Assembly (NCBI GenBank): GCA_963664015.2
Contig: CAXXLF010000001.1
Location: 800,001 to 864,000 of the forward strand
DNA length: 64,000 bases
Source: Candidatus Binatia bacterium
GTDB lineage: Bacteria > Desulfobacterota > Binatia > UBA9968 > CAXXLF01
Direction of reading: 5' to 3'
How positions within the stretch are numbered: the first letter of the stretch is position 1; each line of letters opens with the position of its first letter. This document shows, one piece after another, positions 6,678-9,135 of the stretch. Made by a program: the position numbers and the translations under genes. A model generated the notes under the pieces. The model worked only from the letters and a program-made list of their open reading frames with translations. It had not been told where the DNA came from and ran no database searches.

Positions 6678-7113
6678 ATGAAGTTCCTATTCATTTGTTT
6701 CGCAAACGCCGGACGCAGCCAGGTGGCGGAAGGGTTGTTCAAGAAGCTCTCCAGACACGATGCGGCAAGCGCAGGCACCAATGTCGCGGAACTGTTGGCT
6801 GGGAGGAACCCGCTCAGCAGCAGGGTCAAAGACGCCACCGGTGGACAGACGGTCACTCCTTTCCTATTTGATGGAACAGGGGATCAACCCCGCCGACAAC
6901 ATAAGACAACAGCTCACTCCTGCAATGGTCGACGCCGCCGACCGAGTGATTGTCATTGCATCCAAAGAAAGTTGGCCCCCATACCTCGGACAGAGCCCCA
7001 AGGTCGATTTCTGGGACATCCCCAATGCTGTAGGGATGACTTCCGAGGCTGCGCATCAGATTTATGACCAGGTCAAGCAGCGAGTTCTCGCACTGGTTGA
7101 GGAAATAGGCTAA
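6678..7113 (+). pseudogene. LMW phosphatase / ArsC-like protein, frameshifted
   Basis: MKFLFICFANAGRSQVAE (CX5R) and SAGT in one frame; QLTPAMVDAADRVI..WDIP..IYDQVKQRV in another. Shift near 6850. Confidence 0.75.
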
Positions 7114-7128
7114 CGCATCCCTGCGTAT

Positions 7129-8605
7129 TGCGCCACACCATGTATAATCTAACCCAAGGGCGATACGACACCGCAAAGGCCCAAGAGGCCGCCAACGTTG
7201 CTTAGCCATTTGTGATTCTAACCCTCCAAGGGCTCACATTAGAGCTCAAGGAGGGCAACAATGGAAGGGTTCACCATGGCACGACGATCCAAGCAGGAGT
7301 ATTTACGATCCATCTATGATCGTTATCAGCACGCACCACGGGCACAGAAGGGAACGATGCTAGAGGAATTCTGCAAGGTTTACGGCTACAACCGCAAATA
7401 TGCCATCTGGCTTTTAAACCGGCCCTTGCCCGAGGCAACTGTACGCAAACGGGGTGCACCTCGCTCTCCTACATACAATCGGGCAATGGTAAGGATTTTG
7501 GCAAAGGTGTGGGAGGCCTCGGGGTATCTGTGCTCCCAACGTCTGAAGGCCGCCCTTGTACACTGGTTGCCCTGGATAAGGCAACACTTCGAGCTGACCC
7601 AACCGTTAGAGGATCAGCTCCTGGCCATCAGCGCCCGTCAGATGGATCGGCGCCTGAGGGAAACCAAGCACATCGTGAAACGCCGACTCTATGGCACCAC
7701 TCGGCCCGGATCGCTACTAAAGCAGATGATCCCGATTAAGACCGATCACTGGGATGTGAACCGGCCGGGCTATCTGGAGATTGACCTGGTGTCACACTCA
7801 GGGGCCTCAGCGGTTGGGGAGTTTGTCCATAGTCTGGACTGTGTCGACATTGCTACCTGCTGGGTAGAGCGCAAGGCCGTCATGGGTAAGAGCGCTTTGG
7901 GTGTCTTGAATGCGGTCACCGAGATCGAACACCAGCTTCCTTTTCCCCTCAAGGGGATCGACTCCGACAACGGCAGTGAGTTTATCAACAACCGCCTTCT
8001 TGCCTTCTGTCAACAACGCCCAGCTGGCCACACCATTCAGTTCACCCGCTCGCGTCCCTACAAAAAAGATGACAACGCGCACATCGAGCAGAAAAACTGG
8101 ACCCATGTCAGAAAGCTTATGGGCTGGGATCGCTACGACACCGCAAAGGCCCAAGAGGCCGCCAACCAGCTCTATGATGAGCTTAGGATCTTCCAGAATC
8201 TGTTCCAGCCCTCCATGAAGCTGCGATGCAAGATCCGTATAGGCTCTCGACTTATTCGCCGCTATGACACGCCTCGTACCCCGTTCGAACGGGTCGTGGA
8301 GTCCCGAAAGGGAGACCCCAAAAAGCTGGCAGCCCTCAAGCACACGCTTAAGACAACTGATCCCTTCGAGCTCTCTACCCGAATCGATCAGCAACTGCAG
8401 CGGATCTACAAGCTGGCCAGCCATGCAGACAGAGCCCCACGAGAGAGACCACCGCTGAAACAAACGCCGTGGAGAAACTGGACCTTCAGCAAGAAACTAC
8501 AGCGCCAACAACAGGACATGAAACGACAGATGCGAGACGACTTCGGTTAGATTTTGTAATGACGCAACGAATCCCGCTAGGGTTAGATTTTTTGATGGCT
8601 TAACA
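7129..8605 (+). mobile_element. Insertion sequence with DDE (rve-type) transposase and two TCTAACC repeats at each end
   Basis: TCTAACC at 7148 and 7217; GGTTAGA at 8545 and 8581; right end ..gatggcttaaCA at 8605. No target duplication recognised; the left limit could be 7129 or 7199. Confidence 0.75.
7261..8550 (+). CDS. DDE transposase/integrase (rve domain, ISNCY/IS481-like)
   Basis: PGYLEIDLVSH, GIDSDNGSEFIN, FTRSRPYKKDDNAHIEQKN; N-terminal HTH-like GYNRKYAIWLL. ATG 7276 is an alternative start. Confidence 0.9.
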   Translation: MEGFTMARRSKQEYLRSIYDRYQHAPRAQKGTMLEEFCKVYGYNRKYAIWLLNRPLPEATVRKRGAPRSPTYNRAMVRILAKVWEASGYLCSQRLKAALVHWLPWIRQHFELTQPLEDQLLAISARQMDRRLRETKHIVKRRLYGTTRPGSLLKQMIPIKTDHWDVNRPGYLEIDLVSHSGASAVGEFVHSLDCVDIATCWVERKAVMGKSALGVLNAVTEIEHQLPFPLKGIDSDNGSEFINNRLLAFCQQRPAGHTIQFTRSRPYKKDDNAHIEQKNWTHVRKLMGWDRYDTAKAQEAANQLYDELRIFQNLFQPSMKLRCKIRIGSRLIRRYDTPRTPFERVVESRKGDPKKLAALKHTLKTTDPFELSTRIDQQLQRIYKLASHADRAPRERPPLKQTPWRNWTFSKKLQRQQQDMKRQMRDDFG

Positions 8606-9135
8606 CGCCTGGAATCCAAGACGATTCTAGGCCTTGAATAAGTTGAAGAGACTTTTCCCCGATACATTTCAGCGCATTTGGGAACAGAGTGGAATAAGGG
8701 GGCCTGGGGCGAGTTTCCCCCTCTTGCAGAGTCTATTCCCAGTGACTATAGTGACGCCGTCTTTGAACAGAAACTCTCATAAAACGGTTTACGACAACAA
8801 TCATTCTCTCGGTCTTGATATCAGCAGTTCCTATGGGTGTCACCGCCAGTGATAAGTGGCAGAAAGGCGGAAATCGACGCCGATATCTTCTTAGTAAGTG
8901 GATTCTATTACTATTACCACCGGCGATCCTGGTTTGTGGCGAAGCACTACAACGGTCCTTAGAGGGCCATTTAATTTCATAGAATACCCCCCGGTCTGAA
9001 GGGCAAATCTCCCAGGAGACTTAAAGCCAAGGCCTTAAAGGGAAGAAACGGCCGCAACAGTAAGAAGAGATCCTGAGGTCTGAATATCTGCCTAGAAGTT
9101 TGAAGGTAAAGGCCAACAACCGTCTGGTTAGAAGG

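Follow-up and report, generated by a model that had tools for sequence, protein, structure and literature searches.

At the left end of an insertion sequence (IS) within the 64,000-nt stretch of DNA analysed here (the window), a segment of the element's own transposase gene lies between two copies of an end repeat. The question raised by this locus is whether the segment was placed there by a dedicated process, in the way that a spacer is placed between repeats, or whether it is a mutational scar. A sequence-only reading had left open spacer capture by a DDE enzyme, a self-targeting guide or immunity RNA, and a templated insertion that disables the end. The evidence favours the last of these. 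The segment is likely to be a mutational scar, left by a single, one-off and complex microhomology-mediated templated insertion that has probably crippled the left end. As a system the locus is of low importance, since nothing in the evidence speaks for immunity, a guide RNA or the capture of spacers. Its interest lies in being a clean natural case of multi-patch templated insertion in a bacterium in which Ku and reverse transcriptase were not found, and in which the normal state that preceded the change is known exactly, because both the sibling copies and the corresponding site in other samples show it.

The element and the changes at its left end

For definition of the element, the four copies present in the genome (window copy included) were aligned together with their flanks. 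The window copy extends from 7124 to 8607 on the plus strand (1,484 bp), and the extent first assigned to it, 7129–8605, was corrected on the basis of this alignment and of the target duplications. All four copies have the termini CGTATTG ... TTAACACG. In the window, the element is bordered by a CCTG target-site duplication, at 7120–7123 on the left and repeated at 8608–8611, adjoining the right end. Target duplications of 4–5 bp were found for 7 of 10 full IS copies examined. Normal sibling copies measure 1,446 bp. The transposase gene of the window copy (7261–8550, plus strand) is an intact open reading frame of 429 aa.

Each IS end is made up of two tandem copies of a site of ~36 nt. The outer, terminal left repeat unit (7124–7165, plus strand) is a presumed transposase-binding site that stands in tandem with the inner unit in normal copies, and it contains TATAAT at 7143–7148 and TCTAACC at 7148–7154. 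The inner left unit (7197–7233, plus strand) carries its TCTAACC at 7217–7223. At the right end, the inner and outer units together occupy 8536–8607 (plus strand), with GGTTAGA at 8545 and 8581; they are unchanged in the window copy, and the stop codon of the transposase gene sits in the inner right unit. The two direct repeats said to flank the segment are thus present. The spacings given for them also agree with ours: the left TCTAACC motifs start at 7148 and 7217, 69 nt apart, and the right GGTTAGA motifs at 8545 and 8581, 36 nt apart. In the sibling copies, the left TCTAACC sites are 36 nt apart, the same as at the right end.

The identity that first drew attention to the locus was reproduced letter for letter. 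Positions 7164–7196 equal 8134–8166 on the same strand, and with flanks included 35 of 36 positions agree (7161–7196 against 8131–8166). An exact 33-nt repeat within 1.5 kb is far beyond chance. This 33-mer occurs five times in the 3.51-Mb genome, in the four transposase genes and as the extra copy at the left end in the window; its reversed control pattern occurs nowhere in the genome. The donor sequence is in frame and corresponds to codons 292–302 (YDTAKAQEAAN). As previously placed, it lies within the transposase past the third DDE residue, 16 codons beyond the presumed E276, a residue assigned from its motif.

Comparison with the siblings revealed three insertions in the window copy, of 5, 30 and 3 nt, all confined to the first 81 nt and all absent from each of the three sibling copies. 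The remaining body of the element (7205–8607; 1,403 nt) shows no mismatch to two siblings and two mismatches to the third. The left end had been described as carrying 33 extra nucleotides in one block; the length holds, but the extra DNA consists of 30 nt and a separate TTA at 7202–7204, within the inner left repeat. The 30-nt insertion can be placed at 7167–7196 or, with a common G, at 7168–7197 (plus strand), and is equal to 8137–8166. The normal end already has the TAC(G) with which the 33-nt copy starts, and these bases are therefore junction microhomology rather than inserted DNA. A further change, which had escaped the first description, is the 5-nt insertion ACACC at 7135–7139 (placement ±1 nt; plus strand) in the terminal repeat. 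The point of the 30-nt insertion lies 1–2 nt inside the inner unit's counterpart of the IS terminus, so that the first one or two bases of the inner left repeat (C or CG, 7166–7167) are severed from it. That 81 nt contain three indels while the other 1,403 nt have no substitution suggests one complex event.

Related copies and the same locus in other samples

Homologues of the IS were sought in 61 related genomes and were found in 9, the window's own counted. Alignable left ends came from five genomes (G000 among them) and ranged from 71 to 100% identity. None of the 17 other aligned copies from these five genomes carried an insert at the left end. Two repeats at normal spacing were seen in 15 of the 17, and the remaining two (L028 and L032, which have differing flanks) had a single hybrid repeat.

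Two public collections were then scanned with a pattern anchored in both repeats, with a gap of 3–63 nt allowed; the window, with a span of 82 nt, served as positive control, and the anchors were exact, so that copies with mutated anchors would be missed. Among metagenome contigs, 68 of 69 loci had the normal 49-nt span. The one exception, L065 (84 nt), proved to have its 35-nt repeat unit duplicated in tandem, and involves neither foreign nor self-gene DNA. Among genome contigs, all 70 loci had the 49-nt span; 54 of these are in one metagenome-assembled genome titled Candidatus Binatia, with possible overlap with the genomes of the 61-genome search. The 17-nt segment between the repeats occurred in 31 sequence variants and in one length in 138 of the 139 loci. 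The outer left repeat unit was likewise constant in length in the 137 loci of 139 whose contig reaches the terminus. All 137 complete termini had the same 14-nt stretch before TATAAT, and the 5-nt insertion was absent from every one of them. A variable insert among homologues, which had been proposed as the sign of capture, was thus looked for and not found in these 17 copies and 139 loci, where length varied once, through duplication of a repeat unit.

An insert private to one copy points to an ordinary DNA-copying scar rather than to a capture or guide system. Capture in its functional form would have the DDE transposase, or a partner, put 'spacers' between the end repeats to give a guide, immunity or decoy RNA. 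The patch is indeed derived from the element and lies exactly between two presumed binding sites, with a TATAAT upstream of it, and the earlier description of a self-derived segment between two repeated end sites stands to that extent. The part of it that invoked spacer capture, a guide or an immunity RNA does not, since no homologue has an insert and both repeats, 36 nt apart, pre-exist the insert as the normal end architecture. The two additional small insertions damage the repeats, and the insert lacks a target duplication although the enzyme makes duplications of 4–5 bp. No Rfam family scored above its gathering threshold, the lone match having an E-value of 0.22. The TATAAT at 7143 is present as described, but its proposed role as a promoter was not supported, because a consensus scan of 7050–7320 gave no complete sigma-70-like site. 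In addition, the patch is a sense copy, for which pairing with the transposase mRNA is impossible. Taken with these results, functional capture is highly improbable.

Other systems with which the locus might be compared are CRISPR arrays, CRISPR-associated transposons with end-proximal guides, and the bridge or seek RNAs of IS110/IS1111 elements. The order repeat–insert–repeat near a mobile-element terminus is a superficial likeness to these systems. In contrast to them, the insert in the window is not variable among copies, the repeat was not duplicated, no RNA family was matched and the transposase is probably an rve-type enzyme.

For examination of the same locus in other material, contigs of four sequencing runs from four studies were aligned to it; the depth of the organism in these runs is ~6–8. 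The best indexed run contains 0.71 of the sampled words of 6950–7450. In two runs, X15 and X16 (two studies; contigs of 58 and 2.8 kb), the unique flank runs on to the element across the identical junction; these contigs have no differing letters, but leave out 5 nt at 7133. Both flank contigs break off ~30 nt inside the element, where a repeat would be expected to stop them. In the IS contigs of all four runs, 7167 is joined to 7205 with TTGC between them, which is the normal left end, and positions 7164–7196 are covered only by contigs whose loose ends have the context of the transposase gene. The junctions of the insert are in no contig of the four runs, where contigs show presence and not absence, and no single contig extends across the entire region compared. 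The normal terminus at the same site in X15 and X16 indicates that the locus was once normal, and that the changes arose either in place or in assembly.

The same data allow two other explanations to be weighed. That the insert-bearing end is the older form, since lost by all other copies, is scarcely credible. Across all lineages, to an identity as low as 71%, the normal left end has the same 36-nt spacing as the right end; the patch is 100% identical to the present donor, whereas the genes of relatives differ by up to 29%; and X15 and X16 have the normal terminus at the same locus. The second explanation is an artefact of assembly or library preparation, for example one caused by chimerism or faulty polishing of a long read where a repeat has low coverage. 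With no indexed run exceeding 0.71 of the words and the junctions in no contig, the assembled form of the left end rests on one assembly. The lack of the 5 nt at the locus in X15 and X16, the absence of the insert junctions from contigs of all four runs and the low depth of the organism also fit an artefact, and a four-copy repeat is troublesome to assemblers and polishers. On the other hand, an exact 30-nt copy with joins of 2–4 nt and a return to the original sequence is not random read error, a k-mer graph would need reads holding the junctions, mixing of reads between copies would make the window copy more normal, and the compared runs may be of other strains or samples. The specific suggestion that the 33 nt reflect an assembler k-mer of 33 fails, as only 30 nt are new and the junctions appear to join unlike sequences through 2–4 nt. 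On balance, an artefact is rather unlikely, and a scar formed in place is the reading preferred below.

Junctions, donors and a proposed route

All 30 nt of the main patch are identical to 8137–8166, and donor and copy are in the same orientation, 970 nt apart. The left junction has 4 nt of microhomology, TACG (6 of 7 when read as CG-TACG), and the right junction has 2 nt, AC. With the TAC microhomology included, the donor occupies 8134–8166 (plus strand), and the three other genomic copies are equally possible sources. No 4–5-bp duplication surrounds the insert, whose flanks read ...GATAC(G) and (G)TTGC... with one ambiguous base in common, and this argues against integration by a DDE enzyme.

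The 5-nt insertion together with its flanks (GCC + ACACC + AT) matches 10 nt at 8027–8036 on the same strand, 107 nt upstream of the main donor, which makes this a possible donor for the smaller patch. A spanning match of at least 10 nt in the IS exists for only 14 of the 1,024 possible 5-mers (1.4%). For TTA no convincing donor emerged: the best match is the 6-mer GCTTAG, situated 18 nt past the main donor in the downstream direction, and a match of this length is at the low end for any 3-mer.

Templated insertions and complex indels are known as products of replication slippage, of MMBIR/FoSTeS and of synthesis-dependent MMEJ, and most documented template-switch indels are eukaryotic. Short-range template switching has been described (PMC7954356). 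The changed left end resembles template-switch indels in its exact copy from nearby on the same molecule, microhomology at both junctions, lack of target duplication, small fillers and one-off occurrence. It differs in being bacterial, in a genome in which Ku and reverse transcriptase were not found, and in having acceptor and donor within the same IS. In literature on templated insertions in insertion sequences we did not find self-copied IS-end patches, and no claim is made that they are absent from print.

Under the templated-insertion reading, a normal 1,446-bp IS would have inserted first, generating the CCTG duplication. Later, and in place, a strand being synthesised through the left end would have quit its template and paired via TACG (6 of 7 with CG-TACG) with the transposase gene ~970 bp downstream, or alternatively with its counterpart in a sister molecule or in a different copy of the IS. 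After 30 nt had been copied, the strand would have returned through the 2-nt AC overlap; the 5-nt patch and the 3-nt filler probably stem from the same event. Host polymerases may have switched templates in the course of replication or repair, and the initiating break may have come from the transposase nicking the inner repeat as though it were the IS terminus.

Candidates for a dedicated repair pathway were sought in the genome, which is 97% complete. No match to the Ku family and no RVT_1 match for a reverse transcriptase was obtained, and the control genomes gave matches for both. These results disfavour classical end joining and RNA-templated repair, so that template switching by host polymerases would remain. 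Dedicated break repair, whether by Ku/LigD end joining or by a reverse transcriptase copying transposase mRNA into a break, is accordingly very unlikely, even though a patch in sense orientation that derives from a transcribed gene would be compatible with an RNA template. A role in microhomology-mediated end joining is reported for group II intron-like reverse transcriptases of bacteria (10.1101/2022.03.14.484287).

The terminal repeat is imperfectly palindromic (CGTATTGCGCC / GGGCGATACG). Stalling driven by a hairpin was considered and set aside, since the DNA folds of the normal and mutant left ends and of the donor were no better than those of shuffled sequences (z = −0.46, −1.60, −0.21 and −0.44).

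A more specific origin for the scar is as a by-product of the element's own chemistry, in which the transposase nicks the inner repeat, transposase bound to both repeats obstructs the ensuing replication or repair, and two patches are copied from the transposase gene. The left junction (T36–G39 of the normal IS) brackets the inner-repeat position equivalent to the IS end. We consider this origin quite unlikely. If it were general, 'pseudo-end' cleavage with self-templated patching would constitute an unrecognised form of in-place inactivation of multi-site IS ends.

Classification of the element and probable consequences of the insertions

The transposase was compared with profile, structure and sequence collections. 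All profile matches were below cut-off: 20 bits against Pfam rve (cut-off 32.6), 31.8 bits against the NCBIfam IS481 model NF033577 (cut-off 224) and 19.6 bits against the IS3 model (cut-off 160). Its predicted structure has a mean pLDDT of 69.5, with low confidence at ~266–290 and a long C-terminal helical part. In Foldseek the top-ranking structures were integrase cores of HIV-1 (E = 4e-5) and the IS21 protein IstA (E = 4e-4), at TM scores of 0.25–0.6, which are low. The fold search returned a generic integrase/IstA core and no closer family. A sequence search of solved structures in the PDB gave integrase cores at insignificant E-values of ~0.5–1. Public collections contain more than 8,000 homologues, most of them without a name and located on contigs of ~1.5 kb, and a protein atlas returned only unnamed clusters of the rve type of ~420 aa.

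A single DDE-type gene, 4–5-bp duplications, a length of ~1.4 kb and the best of the weak profile matches are all as in IS481 and IS3 elements. Scores far below the cut-offs, a transposase of 429 aa and ends built as tandem double repeats set the element apart from them. Ends with several transposase-binding sites are also known from phage Mu and IS21. For the IS1202 family, the published description notes an 'additional Tnp binding site near each end', outer ends of the form 5'-TGT...ACA-3' and a Q seventh after the catalytic E (PMC10132070). The element shares with that family (PMC10132070) two repeat units per end, a comparable length (1,446 bp, against ~1.3–1.75 kb), a comparable transposase (429 aa, against 394–507) and duplications of 4–5 bp, against 3–5 bp in one subgroup. 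Unlike IS1202 elements it has the termini CGT...ACG, with TGT/ACA-like triplets only 2 nt inside, and in QKNWTHVRK, the sequence after the presumed E276, the seventh residue is H or V and not Q. With termini that are not TGT/ACA and the Q motif missing, the IS is left unclassified among DDE elements of probable rve type.

An outer and an inner site of ~28–36 nt at conserved spacing is a feature that the element has in common both with IS1202 (PMC10132070) and with the TnsB sites of Tn7 and CRISPR-associated transposons (PMC10201428). It differs from the Tn7 and CRISPR-associated transposons in having one gene and no helper proteins. The comparison of normal and altered copies thereby reveals the end architecture of a widespread unclassified IS group, with two tandem sites per end and strict spacing.

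In the window copy, the sites of the left end are now 69 nt apart instead of 36, and each is also split by a small insertion. The spacing of transposase-binding sites is reported as crucial in a Tn7-like system (PMC10201428). Given this dependence and the strict conservation of length in the IS group, the left end is probably dead or weak, in keeping with the disabling effect first suggested for a templated insertion. The intact transposase gene could still act on other copies.

In folds of the leader RNA, CCCUCC pairs with the GGAGGG ribosome site whether the patch is there or not, and since this hairpin is unchanged, there is no sign that the insert affects regulation. A deletion of 970 bp could in turn arise by way of the newly formed direct repeat of 33 nt.

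Left-end repeat units and leader hairpin

The number of left-end repeat units was not constant among natural copies of the IS, with one unit found in L028 and L032 and three in L065. L028 and L032, both from another genome (G002), each carry a single hybrid left-end unit, and because the flanks of these two loci differ, a left end with one repeat seems still to be mobile. In L065, a metagenome copy, the three units arose via a 35-nt tandem duplication (L065:1489–1584).

Base pairing between CCCTCC of the inner left repeat and the GGAGGG ribosome-binding site encloses an inner stem (window 7221–7257). Both stems are kept in L066, a relative (71–75% identical) in which the letters of the inner stem differ. 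The segment looks like a conserved translation-blocking hairpin, and in this putative role it resembles other IS leaders.

Candidate promoter at abutted ends

The right end of the IS closes with TTAACA plus CG (window 8599–8607), and a TATAAT lies 14 nt inside the left end (7124–7148). If the two ends were abutted, as in a circle or tandem junction, these elements would form a −35/−10 pair with a spacer of 16 nt plus any junction bases, making the pair a possible junction promoter. As such, it would resemble the junction promoters of the IS3, IS30, and IS21 families. The 5-nt insertion in the window copy (7135–7139) would lengthen its spacer.

Insertion sites and spread

A 117-amino acid ORF (6760–7113, + strand) ends with its stop codon 10 nt upstream of the window copy; the insertion site is intergenic, and no gene is broken. 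L003 and L004, two further copies in the same genome (G000:C1:1239681–1241126 and 1247288–1248733), lie in the same orientation ~6 kb apart, and their flanks (ACCG/GTGT and ACCG/CATG, respectively) do not match as target duplications. L023 likewise lacks a target duplication. A composite structure or recombination among the copies may account for such unmatched flanks.

Window positions 7382 and 8353 are the sole substitutions among the IS copies. At 7382, A is found in three copies of the window's own genome and G in L004, in G004 (a genome of another genus), and in contigs of sequencing runs X1 and X6; the 8353 A>G change is confined to L004. G004 holds at least six IS copies (L009, L018, L023, L026, L029, and L031) that are one base (7382 A>G) off the window IS body. 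These copies, together with the finding that 54 of 70 genome-contig matches to a pattern anchored in the two left-end repeats fall in one MAG titled Candidatus Binatia, suggest a very recent spread and burst of the IS among related bacteria.
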